A stretch of DNA of 64,000 nt. Origin: Alphaproteobacteria bacterium UBA3635. GTDB lineage: Bacteria > Pseudomonadota > Alphaproteobacteria > Rs-D84. The position numbers and the translations under genes are program-made. The DNA lies in contig DFKW01000004.1 of the NCBI GenBank assembly GCA_002373935.1, forward strand, positions 27,704 through 91,703, read 5' to 3'. The notes under the pieces are model-generated. The model ran no database searches and was not told where the DNA came from. It worked only from the letters and a program-made list of their open reading frames with translations. This document shows positions 1,294 through 59,559 of this stretch, one piece after another; position 1 is the stretch's first letter, and each line of letters begins with the position of its first letter.

Positions 1294-3828
1294 GTGGCGG
1301 CAAAAGAAAAACTTTCACCGGTAATGCAGCAATATTTGGATATGAAATCCGAAAATCCGGATGCGTTGTTGTTGTTTCGATTGGGCGATTTTTACGAGGC
1401 ATTTTTTGACGATGCAAAAACTATTAGCAATGCACTGAGTTTGGTTTTAACCCATCGTGGGACGGATGGTGCGGGCACCGATATTCCAATGTGTGGTATT
1501 CCATGGCATGCGGCGGACAATTATTTTGGGCGACTGGTAAAATCGGGTTTTAATGTCGCGTTGGTTGAACAAATGGAAACCCCGGCCCAGGCAAAACAAC
1601 GCGGGCATAAATTTATAGAACGCAAAATTGTGCGTGTTTTGACGCCTGGAACATTGACCGATGAAAATTTGTTAAATCCAAAAAACTCTAATTTTTTAAT
1701 TGCGGTTGTGCCGATTCAAAATGGCGATTTTGATGTTGCAGGTTGCGATATTTCAACCGGTGAATTTTTCATTGGAAAAACTCATGATATTATCGATGAT
1801 TTGGTGCGGTTAAACCCGGCCGAGGTTATTTACCCCGCATCATATGCAGAAAACGATACTGTATTCCACATGCGCACAATTTTCAAAACAACACCGGTAT
1901 ATGAAAAATTATATATTCGGTCCGATATAACACAAATTGTGTCGCGTGTGTTTGGTGGTGCGGTGGATGTAGTGCAATCTGAAAACATGGACAATGCAAC
2001 ATATTTGTTGGCGGGCTATTTATTTAACACCGGACGCGGGGCAACAACAACATTTCGTGCGCCGCGGCAATTAAAATCCGGCGCACAATTATTGATTGAT
2101 TCGGCAACATGGAAAAGTTTGGAAATAGATGCGCCGATAAATCCGGGTGGCACATGTTTGATTGATGTGTTGGATAAAACAAAAACCGCGGCGGGGGCGC
2201 GAAAATTGCGCGCTTATTTGCGGACGCTGTCGGGCGATATTGATGAAATAAATTTGCGCCAAACACATATTGCATATTTTTTATCTAATCGGGCAACAAT
2301 GTTAAGCGTTGTTCACGAATTATCATCTATGCCGGATGCCGGACGGTCACTGGCACGATTGATATCGGGACGCGGAACGCCGCGCGACATGGCGCATATA
2401 CGCGATTTTATTTTGAATTTGCCACGGCTAAAAATAATGGCGGCGGCATTTGATTCTGATTTTTCTGCACGCATTGGTGCGATTGATACGCATGATACAT
2501 TGGGCGCAAAATTAAAATCCGCATTGGCCGATAACCTGCCGACATTTTTCCGCGATTTTAATGTAATACGCGATGGATACGATGTCGCATTGGACCGCAT
2601 GCGCGAATTGTCGCATGGTGCAAAAAACACTATTGCCGGACTCCAGGCGCAATATATTGAACAAACAGGTATTCACACATTAAAAATTAAATTTAACAAT
2701 ATATTGGGTTATTTTATCGAGGTTCCATCCACCCGCGCCGATGACATGATGCGCCCTGATTCTGGATTTATACATCGTCAGACATTGGCGGGGAACATGC
2801 GTTTTACAACCGCACAATTGATTGATTTGGACAATGATGTTCGCAGCGCGGTTGAAAAATCTAATGCAATCGAAGAAGAAATCGTCAATGGTTTTATCGA
2901 CAACATTCGTGAAATCGCCGACGATTTATTGGCAACGGCGGATTTGTTGGCTGATTTAGATGTATGGGTGGCATTGGCAATGGTTGCCGATGAATATAAC
3001 TGGGTGCGACCAAAACTGACCCGTGGGTTTGAATTTGATGTTATTGGCGCGCGTCACCCGGTAATTGAATATGTGTTGCGTGCGCATGGCGATAACTTTG
3101 TTAAAAACGATTGTAATTTATCGACAAAAAAAATTGCGTTGTTGACCGGGCCAAACATGGCGGGAAAATCAACATACCTGCGTCAAAATGCGATAATTGT
3201 TGTGTTGGCACATTTGGGGGCTTTTGTTCCGGCGGAAACCGCAACGATTGGCGTTTGTGACCAATTATTCAGTCGCGTTGGTGCGTCAGATAACCTGGCG
3301 GCGGGACAATCAACATTTATGGTGGAAATGAGTGAGACCGCCAATATTTTGCGTCGCGCAACAAATCGTTCGTTTATTATTTTCGATGAAATCGGGCGTG
3401 GAACCGCGACATATGACGGGATGGCGATTGCACAATCTGTACTGGAATTTTTGAACGAACTGGCGCCACGGACTTTGTTTGCAACGCATTATCATGAATT
3501 GACCGCGTTGACCGGTGATAACAATGGCGCGTTGCAAAATGTGTCGTGTTTAACGATTGATGTGCGCGAATACAATAATGAAATTATATTTATGCATAAA
3601 ATCATCCCCGGGGTTGCAAATCGTTCGTATGGTATTCATGTGGCAAAAATGGCGGGTATGCCGGAATCTGTGGTTGCGCGTGCCGCGGTTGTGTTGGCCG
3701 AATTGGAAAACGGCGCAAAATCCAAAACCACAACACCCACAGATGTGAAAAAGCCCGCGCATACCGGTAAAACAAATATGCATATGCATGATGATACACC
3801 GCAATTATCGCTGTTTGGTGAAAAATAA
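1294..3828 (+). CDS. mutS: DNA mismatch repair protein MutS (GTG start)
   Basis: 844 aa. N-terminal mismatch-binding motif GDFYE.F, Walker A GPNMAGKST, MutS domain V TFMVEMSETA...FDEIGRGT. Confidence 0.95.
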   Translation: MAAKEKLSPVMQQYLDMKSENPDALLLFRLGDFYEAFFDDAKTISNALSLVLTHRGTDGAGTDIPMCGIPWHAADNYFGRLVKSGFNVALVEQMETPAQAKQRGHKFIERKIVRVLTPGTLTDENLLNPKNSNFLIAVVPIQNGDFDVAGCDISTGEFFIGKTHDIIDDLVRLNPAEVIYPASYAENDTVFHMRTIFKTTPVYEKLYIRSDITQIVSRVFGGAVDVVQSENMDNATYLLAGYLFNTGRGATTTFRAPRQLKSGAQLLIDSATWKSLEIDAPINPGGTCLIDVLDKTKTAAGARKLRAYLRTLSGDIDEINLRQTHIAYFLSNRATMLSVVHELSSMPDAGRSLARLISGRGTPRDMAHIRDFILNLPRLKIMAAAFDSDFSARIGAIDTHDTLGAKLKSALADNLPTFFRDFNVIRDGYDVALDRMRELSHGAKNTIAGLQAQYIEQTGIHTLKIKFNNILGYFIEVPSTRADDMMRPDSGFIHRQTLAGNMRFTTAQLIDLDNDVRSAVEKSNAIEEEIVNGFIDNIREIADDLLATADLLADLDVWVALAMVADEYNWVRPKLTRGFEFDVIGARHPVIEYVLRAHGDNFVKNDCNLSTKKIALLTGPNMAGKSTYLRQNAIIVVLAHLGAFVPAETATIGVCDQLFSRVGASDNLAAGQSTFMVEMSETANILRRATNRSFIIFDEIGRGTATYDGMAIAQSVLEFLNELAPRTLFATHYHELTALTGDNNGALQNVSCLTIDVREYNNEIIFMHKIIPGVANRSYGIHVAKMAGMPESVVARAAVVLAELENGAKSKTTTPTDVKKPAHTGKTNMHMHDDTPQLSLFGEK

Positions 3829-11146: not shown

Positions 11147-11752
11147 ATGAAAAAATTATTACCGATTGCACTGTGTGCGGTATTGGCCGGGTGCGGTGGG
11201 ACTCGCGTTGTTGATTTGGACAATGCCCGCGATGTTGCAACCATGCAAGATGTTATGGAATTAGAATATCGCGATTGGGAAAAAACCGCGGCAAATATGA
11301 CCGATTCTATGTTGAAAAGTAATGCGTTGACCGGGGTAAAAAAACCGGTGATTGCGGTGGCGAACATTAAAAACGATACTATGCAACGGTTTGATACGGA
11401 TATTTTAATTAAAAAAATCCGCACGACAATTTTGAAATCGGGTCGCGCCCAGATTGCAACAAACTTTACCGGCGAAGACACCACATCAAACAAAATGCGC
11501 AATTTGCGTGGCAATGACGAATATGATGCGGCAACATTTGCGGCAAAAGGAACATTGGTTGCACCAAACATGTCACTGTCGGGAAAAATGTTGCAACGCA
11601 ATTTGAAATTGGAATCCGGGTGGTTTTCATCGGTTGACACACGCGTAGAATATTATCTGCAACTGACATTGACTGATTTGAAAACAGGCCTTGCCGTATG
11701 GGAAGACGAACAGCCGATTGTCAAAGAAGGCACACATGCCCCAACATGGTAA
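11147..11752 (+). CDS. Lipoprotein, LpoB-like (COG3417, penicillin-binding-protein activator family)
   Basis: Lipobox LAGCGG. VIAVANIKNDT...GRAQIA and YYLQLTLTDLKTGLAVWEDEQ parallel the E. coli LpoB C-domain as I remember it. Confidence 0.45.
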   Translation: MKKLLPIALCAVLAGCGGTRVVDLDNARDVATMQDVMELEYRDWEKTAANMTDSMLKSNALTGVKKPVIAVANIKNDTMQRFDTDILIKKIRTTILKSGRAQIATNFTGEDTTSNKMRNLRGNDEYDAATFAAKGTLVAPNMSLSGKMLQRNLKLESGWFSSVDTRVEYYLQLTLTDLKTGLAVWEDEQPIVKEGTHAPTW

Positions 11753-12420: not shown

Positions 12421-12490
12421 ATTTACCTCCCCTGGGATTTGCTTATTTATATTTTTGCTTTATAATTATAAAAAATCAATGGAAAAAAAC

Positions 12491-13828
12491 ATGATGAAAG
12501 TTATAATCACGGGTCGTCCAAACACGGGCAAATCAACATTATTTAACGCGCTGACAGGGTCGCGCGACGCGATTGTGCATGACCGTCCGGGTGTCACGCG
12601 CGATGTTGTTGGTGGACGCTTTCATGACCGACCGTATGAATTATTTGATACCGCCGGATTGGAAAATGCAAAAAATGGTATTGCATTGGATTCGACAAAT
12701 ATGGCGTTAAATGCCATCGCGACGGCGGACGCGGTTTTGTTCATGGTTGATGGACGCGTGGGTTTGACCGCCGCGGATATTAGTTGGGCAAAATTGATTC
12801 ATCGCAAAACAAAATCGCCAATATTGTTGTTGGTGAATAAATCTGAATCTGCAAAAAGATTGGGCGATGTGAACGAATTTTATAAACTGGGGTGTGGCGC
12901 GCCACACATGATTTCGGCGGAACATAAACGCGGAATTGATGATATTTATGAATTTTTGGATAAAATCGCCGCGGACAAAAATATCAATATCGATGCAGAT
13001 GTGACGGATTTGGACCCACGCATTAAAATCGCGGTTTTGGGTCAACCAAATGTTGGAAAATCTACATTTGTAAATCGCGTGTTGGGGGAACGGCGTCAAA
13101 TTGTGATGGATGCGCCCGGCATTACGCGCGACACGGTTAAAATACCAACGCATTTTTATGGTCGCGACATTGTGTTGATGGACACCGCCGGTTTGCGGCG
13201 AAAATCGGGCGTGACCGACGATGTTGAAACATTGTCTGCATTAAAGGCATTGGACGCGATTGAAAAATCGGATGTTGTGATATTGGTTGTGGACGCAACA
13301 AAAAATATCGAGAACCAGGCACTGGGTATCGCGGCGCGTGTGTATGACGCGGGAAAAATTTTATGTGTTGCGTTGAATAAATGGGATTTAATTGAACCAG
13401 AGATTCGGGACGAAAAATTACTGAAATTAAAACATCAGTTTTCAAATTCTTTTCATCAAATTATCAAACCGTTAATTTTGGCGATGTCGGCGGAACGCGG
13501 CACGGGTGTTCAAAATATGTTCAAACGAATTTATGAACAATACGATATTGCATCCGCCCCGGTCCCAACCAGTTTGTTAAACCGGATTGTTGAAAAATTG
13601 GTAGAACAACGCCAGCCACCCATGTCGCGATTAAAACGCGCGATGAAAATCAAATTTGCGCGCCAGGTTGGTCGTTATCCAATGCGTGTGCGCATAAATG
13701 TTGGTGGCGCGTCCGATATACCGGAATCTTATACACGGTATTTGCGGCGCGGGATTGCGACGGCGTTGCACTGGGAACACTTACCGATTGTGATTGAATA
13801 TGAAAAGGCGGAAAATCCGTTTGATTGA
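12491..13828 (+). CDS. der: Ribosome-associated GTPase Der (EngA), tandem GTPase domains
   Basis: Two G1 motifs GRPNTGKSTLFN and GQPNVGKSTFVN, DTAG twice, KH-like C-terminus. Start taken at MMKVIITG; the ORF track has a 12-aa extension. Confidence 0.9.
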   Translation: MMKVIITGRPNTGKSTLFNALTGSRDAIVHDRPGVTRDVVGGRFHDRPYELFDTAGLENAKNGIALDSTNMALNAIATADAVLFMVDGRVGLTAADISWAKLIHRKTKSPILLLVNKSESAKRLGDVNEFYKLGCGAPHMISAEHKRGIDDIYEFLDKIAADKNINIDADVTDLDPRIKIAVLGQPNVGKSTFVNRVLGERRQIVMDAPGITRDTVKIPTHFYGRDIVLMDTAGLRRKSGVTDDVETLSALKALDAIEKSDVVILVVDATKNIENQALGIAARVYDAGKILCVALNKWDLIEPEIRDEKLLKLKHQFSNSFHQIIKPLILAMSAERGTGVQNMFKRIYEQYDIASAPVPTSLLNRIVEKLVEQRQPPMSRLKRAMKIKFARQVGRYPMRVRINVGGASDIPESYTRYLRRGIATALHWEHLPIVIEYEKAENPFD

Positions 13829-27800: not shown

Positions 27801-27951
27801 AAAACATTCTCTCTATTTTAATAAAATATATCAAAAATCATAATGTTGCGCAATAAAAAACGACGGGCAAAAACCCGCATTTATTCAGGCAAAATTTTAT
27901 GTTGCAAACACGGCTTTTTTTGTTTAACATGCAAGCACACAACGCATCAAA

Positions 27952-28025
27952 GGCCAGGTGGCAGAGTGGTTATGCAGAGGACTGCAAATCCTTGTATGCC
28001 GGTTCGATTCCGACCCTGGCCTCCA
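27952..28025 (+). tRNA. tRNA-Cys (GCA)
   Basis: GGCCAGGTGGCAGAGTGGTTATGCAGAGGACTGCAAATCCTTGTATGCCGGTTCGATTCCGACCCTGGCCTCCA. Cloverleaf with anticodon GCA and an encoded CCA end. Confidence 0.9.
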
Positions 28026-28037
28026 ATTTTTTTCAAA

Positions 28038-29120
28038 ATGATTGATTGTTTAACTCTGACCGATTTTAGAAACCACAAAACATCGCGCATAAATACACAT
28101 GGCGCAAAAAACATTGTTATCATTGGCGAAAATGGTGCCGGCAAAACCGCCGTACTGGAGGCGATATCCATGTTATCCGGGGACCGTGGTATGCGCGGGG
28201 CGGACATGTCTGATATTGCGCGATTTGGTGGCACGGGTGGTTTTTCGGTGTTTTGTGAAACCACGGGCGACGATTTAATATCTGTATATTTTAACCCGGG
28301 CGAAAATAATCGGCACGCAAAAATAAATGACGAAAATGCCGCATTGGGGGAATTGGGAAAAATATTGCGCATTGTGTGGATTTCCCCACGCGAAGACCGT
28401 TTGTTTGTGGATAATGTCGCCGACCGGCGCGCATTTTTTGACCGCATGGCATCTAACTTTGACCCGGCACACATTGGGCGCACCGCACGATTTTCAAAAC
28501 TGTTATCGGAACGGGCGGCGGCATTAAAATCGGGCGCAGATGCACATTGGTTGGACGCATTGGATGACCAATTGGCGGGTGTTGCGGTTGCGGTGGCGAC
28601 GGGGCGCGTGCAATATGCGGGCGAATTAAATTTCTTTTTGGAAAAATTTAGTGTGTCGGTTGACGGCATTATCGAAAAAATGATAATTGCGGGCACGCCT
28701 GCGGCGGCGGCAGAACGCGAATATCGTAATTATTTGGCACAAAATCGCGAGTTGATATATGACAAAATGGTTTTGGATGGGCCACATAAATCTGATTTCG
28801 GGATGTTTAACAACGAATTAAATTTGCCGGTAAAAACCACCAGTACCGGTCAACAAAAAAACGCGTTATTTGATTTGGTTTTGGCACACACAGATTTATT
28901 ACACACAAAAACAAAACAAAACAGTATTGTATTGCTGGACGAGGCCGCCGCCCACCTGGACGCGGGGACGCGCGCAAAAATTTTCAAAAAATTAAACGAT
29001 ACACATACCCAGGTTTGGGCAACCGGATTGGATGCCGGGGCGTTTGTTGATGTGCCGGACGCCGTATTTGTCACTTGCGCGGACGGCGAAATTAGTTCTA
29101 TAATCCATCCGGAGATTTAA
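28038..29120 (+). CDS. recF: DNA replication and repair protein RecF
   Basis: LTLTDFRNHK followed by Walker A GENGAGKTAVLEAI. C-terminal signature and Walker B LLDE. Start set at MIDCLTL, downstream of the tRNA. Confidence 0.85.
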   Translation: MIDCLTLTDFRNHKTSRINTHGAKNIVIIGENGAGKTAVLEAISMLSGDRGMRGADMSDIARFGGTGGFSVFCETTGDDLISVYFNPGENNRHAKINDENAALGELGKILRIVWISPREDRLFVDNVADRRAFFDRMASNFDPAHIGRTARFSKLLSERAAALKSGADAHWLDALDDQLAGVAVAVATGRVQYAGELNFFLEKFSVSVDGIIEKMIIAGTPAAAAEREYRNYLAQNRELIYDKMVLDGPHKSDFGMFNNELNLPVKTTSTGQQKNALFDLVLAHTDLLHTKTKQNSIVLLDEAAAHLDAGTRAKIFKKLNDTHTQVWATGLDAGAFVDVPDAVFVTCADGEISSIIHPEI

Positions 29121-29624: not shown

Positions 29625-30125
29625 TTATTTATTGAAAATTTCGCCGCGAAAGTCCGGGTCACCCAAAAAATTATATGAACAACGATATGTGCACAGGTTT
29701 GCACATTCGGCGGTATTGCGGAACTCACCACGATATGCCCATTTTGTCGGTGTTGTTTTATGTATATCGGATGTAGTCGCAATTATTTTACACCAACAAT
29801 GCGGACCGCGTTTTTCCGCCGCAATAAACATCCCATCGGTGTTTTTGTCGTTGCATGTACTGGTCCCCAGGACATTTGTTTCATCATAAAACGCGCGCCA
29901 ATCACCCGGATTTAATCCCGTTGCATGATTTTTCGCACTTTCGTCCAATTGGTAATAGCCCGAACCAAATCGAAACCAATCGATATTCGTGTCATCAACA
30001 TATTGCGGAATATTTTCCGCCACCGCATCGGCAAAATCGTTCGTGACATTTCCATATTCGTCGTATTCAGCAAACGCCGGTACGCATACAAACATCAATA
30101 AAAACGCGATAATTTTATTTTTCAT
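29625..30125 (-). CDS. Secreted cysteine-rich protein with the CWCK/CxxxCxYxCxY/PDFR C-terminal module
   Basis: Signal peptide MKNKIIAFLLMFVCVPAFA. C-terminus ..HCWCKIIA..KWAYRGEFRNTAECANLCTYRCSYNFLGDPDFRGEIFNK. Confidence 0.6.
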   Translation of the reverse strand: MKNKIIAFLLMFVCVPAFAEYDEYGNVTNDFADAVAENIPQYVDDTNIDWFRFGSGYYQLDESAKNHATGLNPGDWRAFYDETNVLGTSTCNDKNTDGMFIAAEKRGPHCWCKIIATTSDIHKTTPTKWAYRGEFRNTAECANLCTYRCSYNFLGDPDFRGEIFNK

Positions 30126-40920: not shown

Positions 40921-40944
40921 CAAAGTTCAAAGTTCAGAGTTCAC
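40921..40944. repeat. AGTTCAAAGTTCA-family dispersed repeat, copy 1
   Basis: caaagttcaaagttcagagttcac. A partial copy (gagttcagttg) lies at about 40975. Confidence 0.7.
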
Positions 40945-41195
40945 CCCGTCGCCCGTTAGGCTATGGGGCGCAGGCAGAGTTCAGTTGTTGTAACATTTAT
41001 TTCGTTCTCGGATATTCCCCGTCTTTTCTGTCGCAACGGAGCGCAAGCGCAGACAGACAAAAAGAAGGGGTGGCACGAAACCGCAACGCGGTTGAGTGAC
41101 GGGGCAGTTAATATTATTTTCACAAATACTACATCCAATGATAAATTAAAACTAGACAACGCAAAATTTTTTTCTATAATCAAAATACCTTTGTT

Positions 41196-41272
41196 GGATG
41201 TTTAGCTCAGTTGGCTAGAGCATCTGCTTTACACGCAGAGGGTCAGGGGTTCGAGTCCCTTAACATCCACCA
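41196..41272 (+). tRNA. tRNA-Val (TAC)
   Basis: GGATGTTTAGCTCAGTTGGCTAGAGCATCTGCTTTACACGCAGAGGGTCAGGGGTTCGAGTCCCTTAACATCCACCA. Anticodon loop TT-TAC-AC. Confidence 0.9.
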
Positions 41273-41291: not shown

Positions 41292-41323
41292 CCGCCCGGG
41301 TATCGCCTGGGCGGTTTTTTTTA
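41292..41323 (+). terminator. Intrinsic terminator after tRNA-Val
   Basis: ccgcccgggtatcgcctgggcgg plus a T8 tract. Confidence 0.75.
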
Positions 41324-41330
41324 CAGAGTG

Positions 41331-41357
41331 CAGTTTTCAGAGTTCAGAGTTCAGTTG
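41331..41357. repeat. AGTTCAAAGTTCA-family dispersed repeat, copy 2
   Basis: cagttttcagagttcagagttcagttg. Confidence 0.7.
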
Positions 41358-41371
41358 TGGCGTAATCAAAC

Positions 41372-41606
41372 AAAAACGCGGATGCGTTTTTGTCATCCTG
41401 AGCGGAGTGAGTCCAACTTGGCGGAACGCCAAAGCCGGACGAACGCAGTCGAAAGTGAGTCACCAATGGTGACGAACGCGGATCCAGGCATATTTGATGT
41501 CGGGCGTATACGCGCCAACAAATTTGTCTTTGCCAAACCTTAGATCCACGCGGTCTAACGACCGCTTTCGACTGGCGCTCAGGATGACAAAATGCTGGCG
41601 CATTTT
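41372..41606. repeat. About 200-bp multi-hairpin palindromic element with 13-bp terminal inverted repeats (MITE-like or structured ncRNA)
   Basis: TIR gtcatcctgagcg (41392-41404) pairs with cgctcaggatgac (41576-41588). Inner pairing cgcagtcgaaag with ctttcgactggcg. Internal hairpins gtcaccaatggtgac and ggcgtatacgcgcc. Flanking hairpins aaaaacgcggatgcgttttt and aaaatgctggcgcatttt. Confidence 0.5.
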
Positions 41607-41627
41607 GTCGGTTTGGCAAAAATATTC

Positions 41628-41657
41628 TTGCAATAAATAAATTCCATTTTCTATAAT
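41628..41657 (+). promoter_or_regulatory. Consensus-like sigma70 promoter (TTGCAA, 18-bp spacer, TATAAT)
   Basis: ttgcaa at 41628-41633, tataat at 41652-41657. The downstream leader carries the gggag/ctccc long-range pair and a cccgc...gcggg hairpin. Confidence 0.5.
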
Positions 41658-42108
41658 GACATCAGAAATCACCAGGGAGTTGATTTCGGAAAGGCACTTC
41701 AAAAGCCTGAACATAACCGGTGCAAAGTTTGCATCGTGACTCTCCCGCACTCGTCCGATTCGATTCGGCGGGGCTGTGTTTGTTGCATACATATTTTGCA
41801 CCGACATTTATTTGTCGATTTTTTTGATTTATAAATGTAAATTTTTATTCCCACTATGTGAACCCCATCGTTGTATTTGGCGGGGGTGCTGCATACAGTA
41901 ATGTATGTGGGATCATTGTTATGTTTGGTTTTTGAACACCCTAGCCGCGCTCTTCCTGATGATGGCGGTGTTTTTTTTGTGTTTTGTTTTACTGCGGGAT
42001 TTTTTCAAACCGAATCCAATTCCCAGTAAAAAAACTAAGGCCATAAAAAGTTCCGATAAAACAAAACACATCCACCGCACTAATAAAACAACGAACGGGG
42101 AGAAAGAA

Positions 42109-43644
42109 ATGAAAAAAATTTTATGTGCGATGTTGGGAATAATCGGGATGTTCATAACACCGGCTTACGCATTACCGGCGGGGTATACAGAGTTAGAGTA
42201 TATCAAATCCACCGGGACACAGTATATTGACGATATAATAAAACCTAATCAAAGATATTCATTTGAAATTAAATACAAGCATACTGTATCAGAAGGTTAT
42301 CAACCATTGTTTGCATTATACGATGGTACTTCAGGTTATTCGTATGGTTTTATGGAAGGTAGTGCAGAAAAAGGAAATTATGCCTATAGCGGCAATAGCG
42401 AAACTTTTACATTAGCATATGATACCAGCACTATATATACATTATATTACGATGGAATAAATAAAAAGGTGTTTCGTAATGGAACAGAAATTGTAGATTT
42501 TAGTGATACAACAGGTTTTTCTGGAACAACAGGTGTTGCACCAAGACTTTTCCAAATAAGAAACGGAGAACATTATAGTAGTACTTTTAGTTATTCGTTT
42601 AAAGGTTACGCATACAGTTTTAAGGTATACGATGATAATAATAATTTAGTTCGCAATATGATTCCTGCTAAACGCAACAGCGATAATGCGATTGGTATGT
42701 ACGATACGGTTGGCGGGCGGTTTTATGAAAATGCAGGTTCGGGTTCTTTCATTGCCGGCCCGGTTGCAGAAATCAAAGTTGCAACCACAAAGTATGTGGA
42801 AACGCAGTTTAGTGATTTGGGCACGCGGTTGGCGGCGGCGGTGGCGACAGTGAATACGGTCGTGACCCAGACGATTGCCCAGGCGGGGAGTATTGCAACT
42901 TTGCAGAGTGGCAAGCAAACCCGCCCAGATGAAACCTGTCCCGCCGGTAAAAAGTGCCTGCTGGTTGAGGGGACCGACGGCCAACCCCATTGGTATGAAA
43001 TATTTGACCCGATAAACCGCTGGTTAGAGGCATTTTTCAAAACAAACCCGAACGGACAACTTGTCGATGGTGGCGCAGATTTCCGCCGGTGGCAGGGTAA
43101 CCCAGATTTCCGCGAAACATATATTGATGGTTCAACATCGGTCTATGCCCGTCAATGGACGGCGGCATCGCCCGCACGCTCGATTGGTGGCTTGTATCAA
43201 ACATTGCCTGCGGGCGACATTGAAAACGCCGGCACATGGGCGGTTGAATTTGATGGCACCGAGGGCGACGGCGTAAACGCGGGCGCGGTGTATGGTATTG
43301 CAAAATGCACGTCTGTGGTGGGGACAATTGCCACAAAATTGACATCGGCGCAAGAGAGTGCGTTCTATACATTACCGGCACCGGTGGGTCAAACGGACAA
43401 TGCAAATTATCCGCGGGAAAACTTTAAAAACTGCTGGTGCAAGATGACGGCGGTGGGTGTGCCTGGTGCGGATGGAACGGCTGCAAACGGTTCTGTGTAC
43501 CCTGTAAATGCGTCGTCCTCTGCGTGGGTCTTCAGCCCCACGTTCGGTTCGGCCGCCGCTTGTGCGGGCAACTGTGCGTACGACTGCGCGTACCGCGTCC
43601 GTGCTAACGCAGATTTTAGAACCGCAGTTTTTGGTTTGGATTGA
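42109..43644 (+). CDS. Secreted protein: signal peptide, AT-rich lectin/ConA-like N-domain, GC-rich C-terminal region ending in the CWCK/CxxxCxYxCxY/DFR module
   Basis: RBS ggggagaaagaa then ATG; MKKILCAMLGIIGMFITPAYA. C-terminus ..NCWCKMTA..AWVF..AAACAGNCAYDCAYRVRANADFRTAVFGLD. ORF-track start 41905 is an upstream in-frame extension. Confidence 0.65.
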   Translation: MKKILCAMLGIIGMFITPAYALPAGYTELEYIKSTGTQYIDDIIKPNQRYSFEIKYKHTVSEGYQPLFALYDGTSGYSYGFMEGSAEKGNYAYSGNSETFTLAYDTSTIYTLYYDGINKKVFRNGTEIVDFSDTTGFSGTTGVAPRLFQIRNGEHYSSTFSYSFKGYAYSFKVYDDNNNLVRNMIPAKRNSDNAIGMYDTVGGRFYENAGSGSFIAGPVAEIKVATTKYVETQFSDLGTRLAAAVATVNTVVTQTIAQAGSIATLQSGKQTRPDETCPAGKKCLLVEGTDGQPHWYEIFDPINRWLEAFFKTNPNGQLVDGGADFRRWQGNPDFRETYIDGSTSVYARQWTAASPARSIGGLYQTLPAGDIENAGTWAVEFDGTEGDGVNAGAVYGIAKCTSVVGTIATKLTSAQESAFYTLPAPVGQTDNANYPRENFKNCWCKMTAVGVPGADGTAANGSVYPVNASSSAWVFSPTFGSAAACAGNCAYDCAYRVRANADFRTAVFGLD

Positions 43645-43709
43645 TGAAACTTGCATATTAGAAATATTTGGCTATAATCAAATCTGAACTGTAAAAAGGA
43701 TTTGGTATA

Positions 43710-45701
43710 ATGGCACAGAAATATTTAATTACATCGGCGTTGCCCTATGTGAACAATGTGTTACATATTGGGCATTTGATTGGATGTTTATTGCCAAGTG
43801 ATGTTTATGCGCGTTTCTGTCGCGCGTTGGGTCGCGATGTGTTATATATTGGTGGTTCTGATGAACATGGAACCCCGTCCGAGGTTGGTGCCCAAAAAGA
43901 AAATATGCCGGTCGAAGATTATGTCGAAAAATACCGCGCAAAACATCTGGACGCGGTGCGGGATTTTAATTTGTCTTTTGATTTATATGGTCGCACGCAT
44001 ACAAAATTGCACGAAAAATTAATTCATGAATTGTTTGAACGGTTGGACTCGATGGGTATGGTTTATGAAAAATCGTCAATGCAGCCGTATTCAATAAATG
44101 AAAAAAAATTCTTGGCGGACCGGTATGTTATTGGGACTTGCCCGCGGTGCGGATATGATGGCGCGTATGGGAACGAGTGCGATAAATGTGGCGCGTCACT
44201 GGACCCGGATCAATTGATAAATCCGCACAGTGCCGTTGACCCGTCGTCCCCGGTTGAAATGCGTGAAACAAAGCATTTGTATTTTAGATTAAGTGCCATG
44301 CAGGATAAATTACGCGCATGGATAAATTCACGCCAGGGGTGGCCAAAAACCGCAATCGCAATCGCAAATAAATGGTTGGACGAAGGACTGCGCGATAATC
44401 CAATTACTCGTGATTTGAAATGGGGAATTCCGGTTAATAAACCCGGTTTCGAAGACAAAGTTTTCTATGTTTGGTTTGATGCGCCGTGGGGTTATGTTTC
44501 AATTTCCCAGGCGGCAACGGACAATTGGGCCGATTGGTGGAAAAACCCGGATTGTAAATATGTGGAATTTATGGGCAAAGATAATGTATCTTTCCATTCT
44601 GTATTTTTCCCGGCCCAAGAATTGGCAATGGATGATGGATGGAAAACCGTCGATGTGTTAAAAGCGTTCAATTTTATGAATTTTAATGGTGAAAAAATTT
44701 CTAAATCACGCGGCAACGGTATATTTTTAGACAATGCGTTATCAATCGCGCCAAGTGATTGCTGGCGGTATGCGTTGCTGGCATCGGCACCGGAAACAGA
44801 CGATACCGATTTCACCGTGCAAAAATTTGCAGAAATCGTGAATAAAGATTTGAACGGTATGTTGGGGAACTTTGTTTCACGCGTTTGCAAACTGACCGAG
44901 AAAAATTTTGGATTGGTGGTCCCAAATCAAAGTTCAAAGTTCAAAGTTCAAAGTTCAGTTATAGCAGATAAAATAAACAAAAAATTAAACGATTTAACCA
45001 CTGCATTGGATCAATGCGAATTTCGTGCGGCGATTTTTGCGCTGCGTTCGCTGTATGCGATTGGTAATGAATATATGACGGAAACGGCACCTTGGGCATT
45101 GGTCAAAGACGGTAAAATGGACGATGCCGGTTCTGTGTTGAATAACTGTTTTCAAATGATTGATTTATTTGCACGCGTGTCGGCACCGTTTATGCCAACT
45201 ACCGCCGCAAAGATGCAAAATATTTTTGGCGCGACGCATGATTTGTCGTGGCCGACATGTTTTGAACACAGAATCGCAAACGGTGAAAAATTTGCCGTGC
45301 CGGAAAATCTGTTCGAAAGAATTGACGATGCGCGTGTCGCAGAAATCAACGAAAAATATTCGGCAAAGCCAAAAACAGCCGCCCCGGTTGTCGCAAAAAT
45401 TTTGGATATTAAATCACATCCCCGGCGCGATGATTTACACATTTTGACGGTGGACAGTGGCAACGACAAATTACAAATCGTTTGTGGTGCGCCAAATGTG
45501 CGCGTGGGGATGGTTGGGGTTTTGGCACCGGTTGGGTGCGTTTTACCGGGCATGACAAAACCATTGGCGGCGCGTAATGTCGGCGGGGTAAAATCCAATG
45601 GCATGATGTGCAGTGCGCAAGAATTAGGTGTTGGGGGGGATGCCACAAAAATTATTGAATTGGATGATACATATAAAATTGGTTCGGAATATAAAGGATA
45701 A
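43710..45701 (+). CDS. metG: Methionyl-tRNA synthetase with C-terminal tRNA-binding (EMAP/Trbp111-like) domain
   Basis: HIGH as NVLHIGHLIG, zinc knuckle CPRCGY..CDKCG, KMSKS as KISKSRGN, C-terminal tRNA-binding domain. Confidence 0.9.
   Translation: MAQKYLITSALPYVNNVLHIGHLIGCLLPSDVYARFCRALGRDVLYIGGSDEHGTPSEVGAQKENMPVEDYVEKYRAKHLDAVRDFNLSFDLYGRTHTKLHEKLIHELFERLDSMGMVYEKSSMQPYSINEKKFLADRYVIGTCPRCGYDGAYGNECDKCGASLDPDQLINPHSAVDPSSPVEMRETKHLYFRLSAMQDKLRAWINSRQGWPKTAIAIANKWLDEGLRDNPITRDLKWGIPVNKPGFEDKVFYVWFDAPWGYVSISQAATDNWADWWKNPDCKYVEFMGKDNVSFHSVFFPAQELAMDDGWKTVDVLKAFNFMNFNGEKISKSRGNGIFLDNALSIAPSDCWRYALLASAPETDDTDFTVQKFAEIVNKDLNGMLGNFVSRVCKLTEKNFGLVVPNQSSKFKVQSSVIADKINKKLNDLTTALDQCEFRAAIFALRSLYAIGNEYMTETAPWALVKDGKMDDAGSVLNNCFQMIDLFARVSAPFMPTTAAKMQNIFGATHDLSWPTCFEHRIANGEKFAVPENLFERIDDARVAEINEKYSAKPKTAAPVVAKILDIKSHPRRDDLHILTVDSGNDKLQIVCGAPNVRVGMVGVLAPVGCVLPGMTKPLAARNVGGVKSNGMMCSAQELGVGGDATKIIELDDTYKIGSEYKG
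44927..44959. repeat. AGTTCAAAGTTCA repeat (4 tandem units) inserted in frame within metG
   Basis: caaagttcaaagttcaaagttcaaagttcagtt encodes ..NQSSKFKVQSSVIADK.. in the anticodon-binding region. The reading frame is preserved. Confidence 0.75.
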
Positions 45702-58466: not shown

Positions 58467-59559
58467 ATTAAAAGAAGTAACTATTCGTGAACTTGCCAAA
58501 GGTTATGTTGATAATATGGAAGACGGTGTTGTCGCGTATTCTGGGCGATTGGATGTTCGCCCGGCATATCAACGGGAATTTGTATATAAAGACAAACAAC
58601 GCGATAATGTTATTGATTCTGTTCGTAAAAATTATCCGTTAAATGTTATGTATTGGGTTGATAATGGAAATGACCAATATGAAATTTTAGACGGTCAACA
58701 ACGCACAGTTTCTATATGCCAGTATGTTAACGGGTATTTTTCAATAAACGACAGACAATTTGATTCTTTGGAACAAGACGAACAAGATAAAATTTTAGAT
58801 TATCAATTACAAGTTTATGTTTGTTCAAATGGAACAGATTCTGAAAAATTAGAATGGTTCAGGACTATAAATATTGCTGGCGAAAAATTATCTGACCAAG
58901 AATTACGTAATGCCACATATCGTGGGCCATGGTTGACCGAGGCAAAAAAACATTTCTCTAAAACCAATAATCCTGCCCAGGCAATCGGCGATAAATACAT
59001 TTCTGCAAAATGGAACAGACAAGAAGGTTTAGAAACGGTTTTATCTTGGATATCAGATGATAAAATAGAAAGGTATATGAACGAACACCAAAAAGATTCT
59101 AACGATAATGAATTATGGTTATATTTTCAATCTGTAATTGCTTGGGTAAAAACATTATTTCCAAATTACCGAAAAGAAATGAAATCTGTTAATTGGGGAT
59201 TGTTATATAATACATATCATACAAAATCGTTTGATGCCACAGAATTGGAAAAACAAATCTCTGTTTTGATGCAAGATAGCGAAGTTGAAAATAAACGTGG
59301 TATTTATGAGTATATATTTGATAACAACCAAAAACACCTTAATTTACGACAATTTGATGATAATATAAAACGCACTGTTTATGAAAAACATGGCGGTATT
59401 TGCCCAATGTGTCGTGGAACCGTAAATGAAAATAAAAAATGGGAAATCAGCGAAATGGAAGCTGATCATAATATTCCTTGGTCAAAGGGTGGAAAAACAG
59501 TAGAAGAAAATTGTGTAATGTTATGCAGACAACACAATCGTGAAAAAAGCGACAAGTAA
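58456..59559 (+). CDS. DUF262 (ParB/Srx-like, DGQQR motif) protein fused to a C-terminal HNH nuclease; GmrSD-like putative restriction endonuclease
   Basis: ILDGQQRTVSI. C-terminal CPMCRG...ADHNIPWSKGG...CVMLCRQHN (CxxC...H-N-H...CxxH). Overlaps the MTase gene by 11 bp. Confidence 0.65.
   Translation: MEIKLKEVTIRELAKGYVDNMEDGVVAYSGRLDVRPAYQREFVYKDKQRDNVIDSVRKNYPLNVMYWVDNGNDQYEILDGQQRTVSICQYVNGYFSINDRQFDSLEQDEQDKILDYQLQVYVCSNGTDSEKLEWFRTINIAGEKLSDQELRNATYRGPWLTEAKKHFSKTNNPAQAIGDKYISAKWNRQEGLETVLSWISDDKIERYMNEHQKDSNDNELWLYFQSVIAWVKTLFPNYRKEMKSVNWGLLYNTYHTKSFDATELEKQISVLMQDSEVENKRGIYEYIFDNNQKHLNLRQFDDNIKRTVYEKHGGICPMCRGTVNENKKWEISEMEADHNIPWSKGGKTVEENCVMLCRQHNREKSDK

Follow-up and report, generated by a model that had tools for sequence, protein, structure and literature searches.

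The stretch of DNA analysed here, referred to as the window, comprises 64,000 nucleotides of contig DFKW01000004.1 (positions 27,704 to 91,703 of the forward strand; assembly GCA_002373935.1) from Alphaproteobacteria bacterium UBA3635, which belongs to the Rs-D84 lineage. Between a tRNA-Val gene and metG, it carries an open reading frame (ORF) whose terminal ~110 nucleotides are the variable region (VR) of a diversity-generating retroelement (DGR). The encoded protein consists of a signal peptide, a module A, a connector B, and a Cys-rich module C, with boundaries mapped from local alignments, and its gene is preceded by a candidate promoter and a long leader RNA. Coordinates are collected in Table 1. 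Homologous proteins are given P-numbers (P0001 is the public call of the window gene), and loci of relatives are given L-numbers.

Translation was placed by the initial annotation at the ATG at position 42109 rather than at 41905, to which the frame extends upstream, and this choice stands. The public gene call P0001 is also 511 residues long and agrees with this ATG, which follows the Shine-Dalgarno-like GGGGAG. Residue 1 of many homologues aligns to residue 1 of the query, and the equivalent start has been called in the syntenic orthologue of a close relative. Because the upstream part of the frame, back to 41905, falls within a conserved, terminator-bearing RNA element, it is not coding. 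The predicted N-terminus is a typical Sec signal, presumably cleaved at its A-x-A site.

Table 1. The family gene with its leader, neighbouring and related features, and the accessory ORF of related loci. Positions refer to the window unless a locus is named.
Feature	Coordinates	Strand	Details
tRNA-Val(TAC)	41196-41272	+	ARAGORN, Rfam; own promoter-like site 41153-41180 and terminator 41292-41314; outside the leader
Conserved family-specific 5' leader RNA element	41626-41974	+	nhmmer; promoter plus ~320-nt covarying RNA with terminators
Candidate sigma-70-type promoter	41628-41657	+	TTGCAA-18 nt-TATAAT; consensus scan, 10/12 matches
Leader 5' switch region	41718-41825	+	a CGGTGC 41718-41723; b GCATCG 41731-41736; c GCACCGAC 41798-41805; terminator-like hairpin plus T-run 41802-41825
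Leader 3' domain	41884-41978	+	P1 41884-41888/41937-41941, enclosing GNRA-type hairpin H5 41889-41910 and small hairpin H6; terminator T2 41944-41969, T-run 41971-41978
Shine-Dalgarno-like GGGGAG	42097-42102	+	6 nt 5' of the ATG; read off the sequence
Family gene ORF	42109-43644	+	511 aa
Predicted signal peptide	42109-42171	+	MKKILCAMLGIIGMFITPAYA; from the translation; A-x-A cleavage motif; homologue N-termini align from residue 1
Module A (aa 22-221)	42172-42771	+	AT-rich, predicted LamG/pentraxin-like beta-sandwich; often duplicated within one protein
Module B (aa 222-300)	42772-43008	+	near-invariant connector IKVATTKYVE...KQTRPDETCPAGKKCLLVE...PHWYEI; invariant alignment columns
Module C (aa 301-511)	43009-43641	+	GC-rich, Cys-rich, bears the VR; core ~370-511
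DGR variable region	43513-43620	+	core 43525-43610; 3' ~110 nt of the gene
Small secreted paralogue of the C core	29625-30125	-	166 aa; tblastn E = 9e-5; degenerate VR-like tail (...CANLCTYRCSYNFLGDPDFRGEIFNK)
Accessory ORF between template repeat and reverse transcriptase	L052:3747-4073; L027:11841-12239; L034 ~2721-3044; L013 ~12487-12838		108-132 aa; 82-93% identical among genomes

Among family proteins that are otherwise ~80% identical, the C-terminal ~40 residues present hypervariable pairs in the fixed scaffold WVF··T··SA··CA··CA··CA··VR··A·FR·AVF. The variable codons follow the DNA pattern NNC, with the third-position C fixed. At four related loci (L052, L027, L034, and L013), a non-coding template repeat (TR) of ~130 nucleotides lies 0.4-1.1 kb 3' of the target gene and reads AAC or AAT at every variable codon. 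All VR/TR mismatches at these loci fall on TR adenines (18/18, 16/16, 11/11, and 16/16, respectively), and 0 of 102-110 non-adenine sites differ. The four cassettes share the order target, TR, accessory ORF, and reverse transcriptase (RT). The RT, of ~345 residues, matches RVT_1 (E = 9e-12 and 3e-13) and PHROG 1423 (E = 5e-102) and carries IGNLTSQ and YCDD motifs. These cassettes are complete DGRs. The accessory ORF product matches neither Avd (PF05635) nor HRDC nor any other Pfam, PHROG, or NCBIfam family, so the arrangement does not qualify as an Avd cassette, and the ORF may represent a new class of DGR accessory protein.

Five further TRs with the same core come from Joint Genome Institute metagenomes, bringing the total to nine. 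The target at L052 (L052:20-2053; 677 aa; architecture C'-X-B-C) has two VRs that match a single TR. Its internal VR (~535-667) shows 13 adenine-site and 0 non-adenine differences within the repeat, and its C-terminal VR shows 18 and 0. Every cassette-adjacent VR is followed, within 15 nucleotides of the stop codon, by a GC-rich hairpin of -24 to -35 kcal/mol. The template holds 12 Asn codons, which would allow ~1e14 variants.

The tail of the window gene carries the same signature. When its 86-nt VR core is compared with the TR of L052, a template from another genome, 17 of 26 adenine sites differ, compared with 0 of the 60 other sites (Fisher p = 7.8e-12). The 17 changes are to G (8), C (5), and T (4). 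The 5' extension of the VR matches a TR of Candidatus Enterousia onthequi, and the burst of differences from the syntenic orthologue ends at ~43619. Adenine makes up 10% of the core, as expected if every template adenine is mutable. Identity at all non-adenine sites, synonymous ones included, indicates that a template of this kind was the source of the tail and that the copying was recent. The initial annotation had correctly reported a Cys-rich C-terminal module, GNPDFRETY at ~43093, and a terminal ADFRTAVF, all of which are present in the translation. It did not recognise the variable region in that module, and the internal PDFR that it listed as a second PDFR motif is a conserved C-domain motif without a link to the VR.

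Ordinary diversification of paralogues, in which positive selection and gene conversion shape the tail with no retroelement involved, would suit a large, recombining family and a window that holds no cassette. However, it predicts neither differences confined to template adenines nor the fixed third-position C of variable codons, and selection would not spare every non-adenine synonymous site. Moreover, non-coding TR copies with AAC at variable codons adjoin RT genes in relatives. These data contradict this explanation, which we consider very improbable.

Several observations count against a DGR that still serves the window gene. No TR, RT, or accessory gene was found in the 64-kb window by low-stringency blastn with the VR, a regular-expression search for the TR core, or tblastn with two RTs and two accessory proteins. 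The RT of the window's own genome was not located among the top 120 RT homologues. The last ~30 nucleotides of the VR (GCAGATTTTAGAACCGCAGTT...) are unmatched by any of the nine TRs. The GC-rich hairpin of cassette-adjacent VRs is missing 3' of the window VR, where the AT-rich metG promoter region lies, so the site lacks this presumed target-recognition element. P0001 forms a single-member cluster. For comparison, further C-module genes of this clade likewise have housekeeping neighbours and no RT close by, as remote targets would. Where a genome has a known cassette, most of these remote VRs are adenine-biased relative to the TR of the same genome and also carry 4-11 non-adenine differences, and two (L020 and L066) are too diverged to judge, so targeting in trans may no longer be current.

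Two candidates for the missing components were rejected. A weak RT match at 11493-11699 (E = 0.005) lies on the antisense strand of an LpoB-family gene. The minus-strand ORF at 41460-41807, considered as an Avd-like gene, has no Pfam match and overlaps a repeat element.

With no template or RT in the 64-kb window, the gene is either a remote target or an orphan. It might be a relic, whose tail was written by a DGR in the past and which, now without cis elements or a cassette, is subject to ordinary evolution. This explanation differs from the one we favour only in present-day activity, and it fits the missing components and hairpin, the unmatched 3' end of the VR, and the few non-adenine differences of most remote VRs in other genomes. 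It also fits the syntenic orthologue P0004 (608 aa; L076:9860-11686) in the 96%-identical genome KS318-84. This protein occupies the same slot, from a SIMPL-family gene to metG, with a different set of N-terminal modules. Its VR has decayed (NNT codons and 24 non-adenine differences to the TR core), and the sequence right after its stop codon is identical to that of the window. However, the perfect match of the window VR core to the template at non-adenine sites points to recent copying, and two remote VRs of the sister genome, in P0018 (1 non-adenine difference) and P0006 (4), are also nearly pristine relative to the shared TR core. A relic is a serious contender, somewhat short of an even chance. 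We read the window gene as a remote DGR target, with roughly even odds that it is active at present.

Modelled alone with AlphaFold2 (AF2), module C forms an alpha/beta domain of good confidence (predicted local distance difference test, pLDDT, 89.1; predicted template modelling score 0.88) with the VR on its last two helices. The four-residue period of the CA·· repeat would place Cys and Ala on one helix face and the variable pairs on the other. Six cysteines are invariant, which suggests, from the alignment rather than from coordinates, that the domain is stapled by disulfides. The Cys/Ala face is probably held to the domain core by disulfides to the invariant CWC and AKC cysteines. Foldseek returns no match to this fold in the PDB (best E = 0.38) or BFVD, and the sequence has no Pfam, NCBIfam, PHROG, or PDB profile match. 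The model shows no sign of the C-type-lectin fold (CLec/FGE/DUF1566), and a lectin-type Pfam signal is found in 0 of 36 members. Module C is also rare, with 108 matching cluster representatives among 1.84 billion. Apparently, this VR scaffold is one unseen so far in DGR systems. Protein P0263, with 5,692 residues, contains 19 stretches similar to module C residues 53-177 and is apparently a giant protein assembled from repeats of the module's non-variable part.

For the N-terminal half, the initial annotation had proposed a ConA/LamG-type beta-sandwich, and structure comparison supports a jelly-roll of the LamG/pentraxin/ConA type. The module A model matches ADGRG4 PTX, PAPP-A LamG, CRP/SAP, laminin G, neurexin LNS, and CBM40 (Foldseek E = 6e-6 to 1e-4, probability 1.0, target-normalised TM score ~0.5), with only moderate pLDDT for this region in a whole-protein AF2 model of pLDDT 72. 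Module A has no Pfam match, so sequence does not place it in these families. Connector B, with the family consensus IKIATTKY...KQTRPDE·CPAGKKCLLVE...PHWYEI, is predicted to form a long helix, of low pLDDT in the monomer model, and a Cys-Cys beta-hairpin. The helix is perhaps an oligomerisation element.

A sharp change in base composition near position 42700 had been noted from the sequence, and computation bears it out. In 200-nt windows GC stays at 0.31-0.35 as far as ~42700 and then runs at 0.52-0.59 until the stop codon. GC content at third codon positions (GC3) steps from 0.271 (aa 1-221) to 0.608 (aa 222-300) and 0.540 (aa 301-511), so the shift is more than an amino-acid effect. The 42 other genes of the window have a mean GC3 of 0.414 (standard deviation 0.055), and their 201 windows of 600 nt span 0.23-0.515. 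Thus one half of the gene sits at the low end of the local values, and the other half exceeds them.

Such a step might mark a single fusion, with one event of recombination or horizontal transfer bringing together a lectin-like piece rich in AT and a foreign piece rich in GC. The step falls at the A/B junction, module A is replaced relative to the sister genome, and the two parts have their best relatives in different proteins (A is 80% identical to P0011, and B-C is 84% identical to P0005). However, the same contrast recurs in every genome examined: GC3 averages 0.29 for A (n = 72), 0.50 for B (n = 91), and 0.53 for the C core (n = 22) across at least seven metagenome-assembled genomes (MAGs), at loci of ~41% GC. 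It is therefore a property of the modules and not of a one-off chimera. The B-C and A-B junctions are ancestral to the family, and the DGR RT and accessory genes have a host-like GC3 of 0.30-0.52, making a GC-rich donor unlikely. As a one-off event the fusion is already contradicted, and we judge it improbable. The shuffling that the initial annotation had suggested is supported, and a single fusion of foreign pieces in this gene is not.

The sister genome shows where exchange occurs. Identity to it is 96-100% in the flanks and 99% across leader and signal peptide. In contrast, most of module A (42137-42645) finds no counterpart there at the nucleotide level and has been replaced outright, and B-C is 20-50% diverged per 30-nt bin. 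These conserved flanks and handles around a replaced module mark the gene as a recombination hot spot with breakpoints in the handles. A same-genome nucleotide paralogue exists for 97% of module B copies (median identity 89% within and 81% between genomes) and 64% of C cores (82% and 72%), compared with 8% of module A copies. Thus B and C evolve in concert within genomes, whereas A copies are essentially unique. Possibly, the homogenised, recombining modules are kept GC-rich by GC-biased gene conversion and the unique cassettes stay AT-rich. A direct test weighs against this idea, in that within-module GC3 and similarity to other copies are uncorrelated (rho ~0.1, not significant).

A consensus promoter followed by a structured leader of some 450 nucleotides had also been proposed, and both features gain support from relatives. 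Sites of the TTGCAA-18-TATAAT type occur 5 times, compared with 5.2 expected in shuffled sequence, so the window promoter is credible because of its invariance across relatives rather than the frequency of such matches. Nine aligned homologous upstream regions show little or no variation in the -35 TTGC and the TTTTCTATA(A/C)T block, and the invariant family form is TTGCA-N17/18-TCTATAAT. The leader element is present in ~30 copies (33 nhmmer matches, with three loci in two pieces) in at least six MAGs, associated with genes of all architectures. With two exceptions, the matches share the strand of a family gene and lie 125-1450 nucleotides 5' of the first module recognised in it. Copies from different genomes are 69-77% identical in nucleotide sequence, and the leader has no Rfam family match.

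The 5' half of the leader can form three mutually exclusive helices that have one motif in common. Segments a and b pair at 6/6 positions in 23 of 24 leaders, and a and c pair at 6/6 positions in all 24, by way of three covarying versions. Segments c and d form an 8-bp terminator stem in 13/24 leaders, mostly followed by a U-rich tail, and this stem is eroded to 4-6 bp in the window's subgroup. RNAalifold predicts a long-range helix with compensatory changes. In the 3' domain, standard pairs fill 89.7% of alignment cells, compared with 84.7% in shuffles (0/500 reach the observed value) and 37-52% with slid partners, and double-change cells number 40, compared with 15.7 +/- 5 in shuffles (0/500). 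Hairpin H5 has compensatory changes in 6/6 inner pairs. P1 and H6 are invariant and hence uninformative, so covariation supports only part of the fold. Register shifts in the hairpin arms of the full-length alignment (A4) led us to use a scripted arm count and a sub-block alignment (A5) in place of a covariance model.

In the window the first terminator is eroded and the second (41944-41978) is intact; both are seen in relatives. A covarying structure that ends in an intrinsic terminator 5' of an ORF is characteristic of cis-regulatory leaders, and the element looks like an attenuator or riboswitch-type control element. Like attenuation leaders and riboswitches, it combines mutually exclusive helices that include an intrinsic terminator with a three-way-junction-like domain directly before the second terminator, and it shows covariation. 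Unlike them, it has no Rfam match, and its P1 and H6 do not vary. We consider it a candidate for a new cis-regulatory RNA family.

A database search yielded 439 homologues, none of which is annotated or has a Pfam domain. Their sources are uncultured Alphaproteobacteria of gut and rumen, whose MAGs encode many paralogues each. Our genome scan found 73 family loci, many of them at contig ends. A single MAG of Candidatus Enterousia onthequi accounts for at least 26, and three RUG MAGs have 9-13 apiece. The proteins are built from exchangeable parts (signal peptide, LamG-like A, connector B, and Cys-rich C) in the architectures A-B-A (the commonest), A-B, A-B-A-C, X-B-C, and A-B-C, the last being that of the window gene. 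A small paralogue within the window (29625-30125) has tail codons that are not of the NNC type and belongs to no Pfam or NCBIfam family. At the nucleotide level, the window shares 96% identity and full synteny with the Enterousia MAG KS318-84 (JBKSMX; GCA_046881955.1; a genome of ~850 kb; order Rs-D84). The Rs-D84 lineage is described as reduced and partner-dependent, and its Enterousia members are uncultured gut bacteria with genomes of ~0.75-1.0 Mb (PMC12306168). We are fairly confident that the ORF encodes a secreted, modular ligand-binding protein of a multigene family specific to the Candidatus Enterousia lineage, with a tail that was written by a DGR for which the gene is a remote target.

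Many DGR targets are prophage tail-fibre or receptor-binding proteins, the ATTKY motif and lectin-like domain are reminiscent of tail fibres, and the RT matches a PHROG family. However, the protein itself has no PHROG match and carries a Sec signal peptide, dozens of copies are scattered per genome, and the neighbours are housekeeping genes in conserved synteny (a SIMPL-family gene, tRNA-Val, metG, queH, and fabD/G). We reject a prophage origin as very improbable.

We propose that the window VR was written by mutagenic retrohoming from a template elsewhere in the genome, which would make the gene a remote target, orphaned recently if it is no longer served in trans. The variable residues would occupy one face of the C-terminal helix, with the opposite Cys/Ala face pinned to the core. 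Connector B, and the leader with the signal peptide, may serve as homologous handles for cassette exchange. Gene conversion of these handles, possibly GC-biased, could combine with adenine avoidance in the VR to keep B-C GC-rich, whereas unique A cassettes would stay AT-rich. Expression would be gated by the conserved, terminator-containing leader RNA. A more far-reaching version of this explanation holds that a chromosomal DGR writes diversity on a disulfide-stapled helix of a previously unseen domain that is not a C-type lectin, that it acts in trans on scattered lectin-like family members including the window gene, and that a new class of leader RNA gates their expression. It is tentative, and we assign the whole combination a probability of roughly one in three (about 0.35).

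Other features of the window include several repeats. A palindromic repeat element of ~300 nucleotides (41311-41618) lies between tRNA-Val and the leader, with the inverted repeat TTGTCATCCTGAGCG at 41390-41404 and 41576-41590. It is 74-77% identical to copies beside family genes (L044 and L062) and between VR and TR in L052, and is missing at the sister-genome locus (alignment gap 41357-41647). It looks like a mobile repeat of the miniature inverted-repeat transposable element or repetitive extragenic palindromic type. Tandem heptamers AGTTCA(A/G) occur at 40924-40943, 41341-41353, 44931-44957, and 50501-50567 (9 matches, compared with 0.05 expected by chance). They are located after the SIMPL-family gene, after the tRNA-Val terminator, in frame in metG (...SSKFKVQSSV...), and between fabG and mnmG. 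Similar repeats of the KVQS type are found 3' of the TR in L052.

The gap from the stop codon of the family gene to metG is 65 nucleotides and contains, by eye, a promoter-like TTGCAT-N17-TATAAT sequence for metG (43650-43700); a terminator scan found no terminator 3' of the family gene. A tRNA-Cys(GCA) is predicted at 27952-28025 within the listed plus-strand ORF at 27843-29120, whose true start is probably downstream of the tRNA. A low-GC island at 57444-59559 (GC 0.31-0.33, GC3 ~0.24) carries genes for an EcoRI-type adenine methyltransferase (E = 5e-121) and, after it, a GmrSD_N plus HNH endonuclease, and is probably a horizontally acquired restriction or defence module.

The prototype of mutagenic retrohoming is the DGR of Bordetella phage BPP-1, and the roles of the (I/L)GxxxSQ motif and of the hairpin downstream of the VR are known from the DGR literature. 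The BPP-1 system (Mtd/avd/TR/Brt) shares with the Enterousia cassettes a VR at the 3' end of the target, TR AAC codons at variable positions, adenine-specific differences, an RT with an (I/L)GxxxSQ-type motif, and a GC-rich hairpin just 3' of cassette-adjacent VRs. In contrast, the Enterousia host is a bacterium rather than a phage, the order is target-TR-accessory-RT, the accessory ORF has no Avd match, the VR domain has no C-type-lectin signal in fold or sequence, and the window copy has no nearby cassette. The variable domains of gut Bacteroides pilus-tip adhesins are reportedly C-type lectins. As described in a preprint, those gut DGRs likewise vary the tips by which secreted or surface adhesive proteins bind ligands, but they belong to another phylum and another protein family, and a pilus context like theirs is not seen here (bioRxiv 10.1101/2024.11.15.621889).

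In Treponema, one DGR serves seven targets that do not adjoin it, and distances of more than 100 kb to a target are on record (PMC5758913). DGRs of the Treponema denticola TvpA and Legionella LdtA type are cellular and serve several secreted or surface targets, some far from the RT, which parallels the scattered C-module genes described here. However, their targets have the FGE/CLec fold, whereas the Enterousia system uses a shuffling LamG-like/connector family with the VR scaffold WVF··T··SA··CA··CA··CA··VR··A·FR, and its current targeting in trans is putative. Neisseria pilE/pilS and Mycoplasma MgPa are families that vary antigens or adhesins by cassettes. They resemble the present family in three ways: hyper-diverse cassettes sit between conserved segments, those segments undergo concerted evolution in each genome, and closely related strains differ by outright cassette replacement. 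Unlike these families, no layout of silent cassettes and expression site was seen, and every copy examined has its own signal peptide, many with their own promoter and leader.

Of all known systems, DGRs create the greatest diversity of protein sequence. The C-type-lectin scaffold is found in all solved and essentially all annotated DGR variable proteins (PMC6328139, PMC8144416), and by their own account large DGR surveys cannot see remote targets (PMC8144416), so targets of the kind in the window are missed by them. Because DGRs and remote targets are already known, the potentially new parts are the scaffold and the leader. If the far-reaching version of our explanation is true, module C would be the first well-supported DGR scaffold that is not a C-type lectin, within a two-tier system of diversification that couples module swapping to codon rewriting. 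A variable domain that displays its residues on a helix and has no lectin signal would broaden the structural rules for massive variation, and protein engineering would gain a new and compact scaffold.

For the organisms themselves, genomes of only ~0.75-1.0 Mb that still maintain a DGR, family genes by the dozen, and a regulatory RNA dedicated to them suggest that Enterousia invests heavily in variable surface or secreted binders. Such an investment would parallel that of episymbionts of the Candidate Phyla Radiation and DPANN, and the system provides handles for studying how Enterousia attaches to a host or partner.

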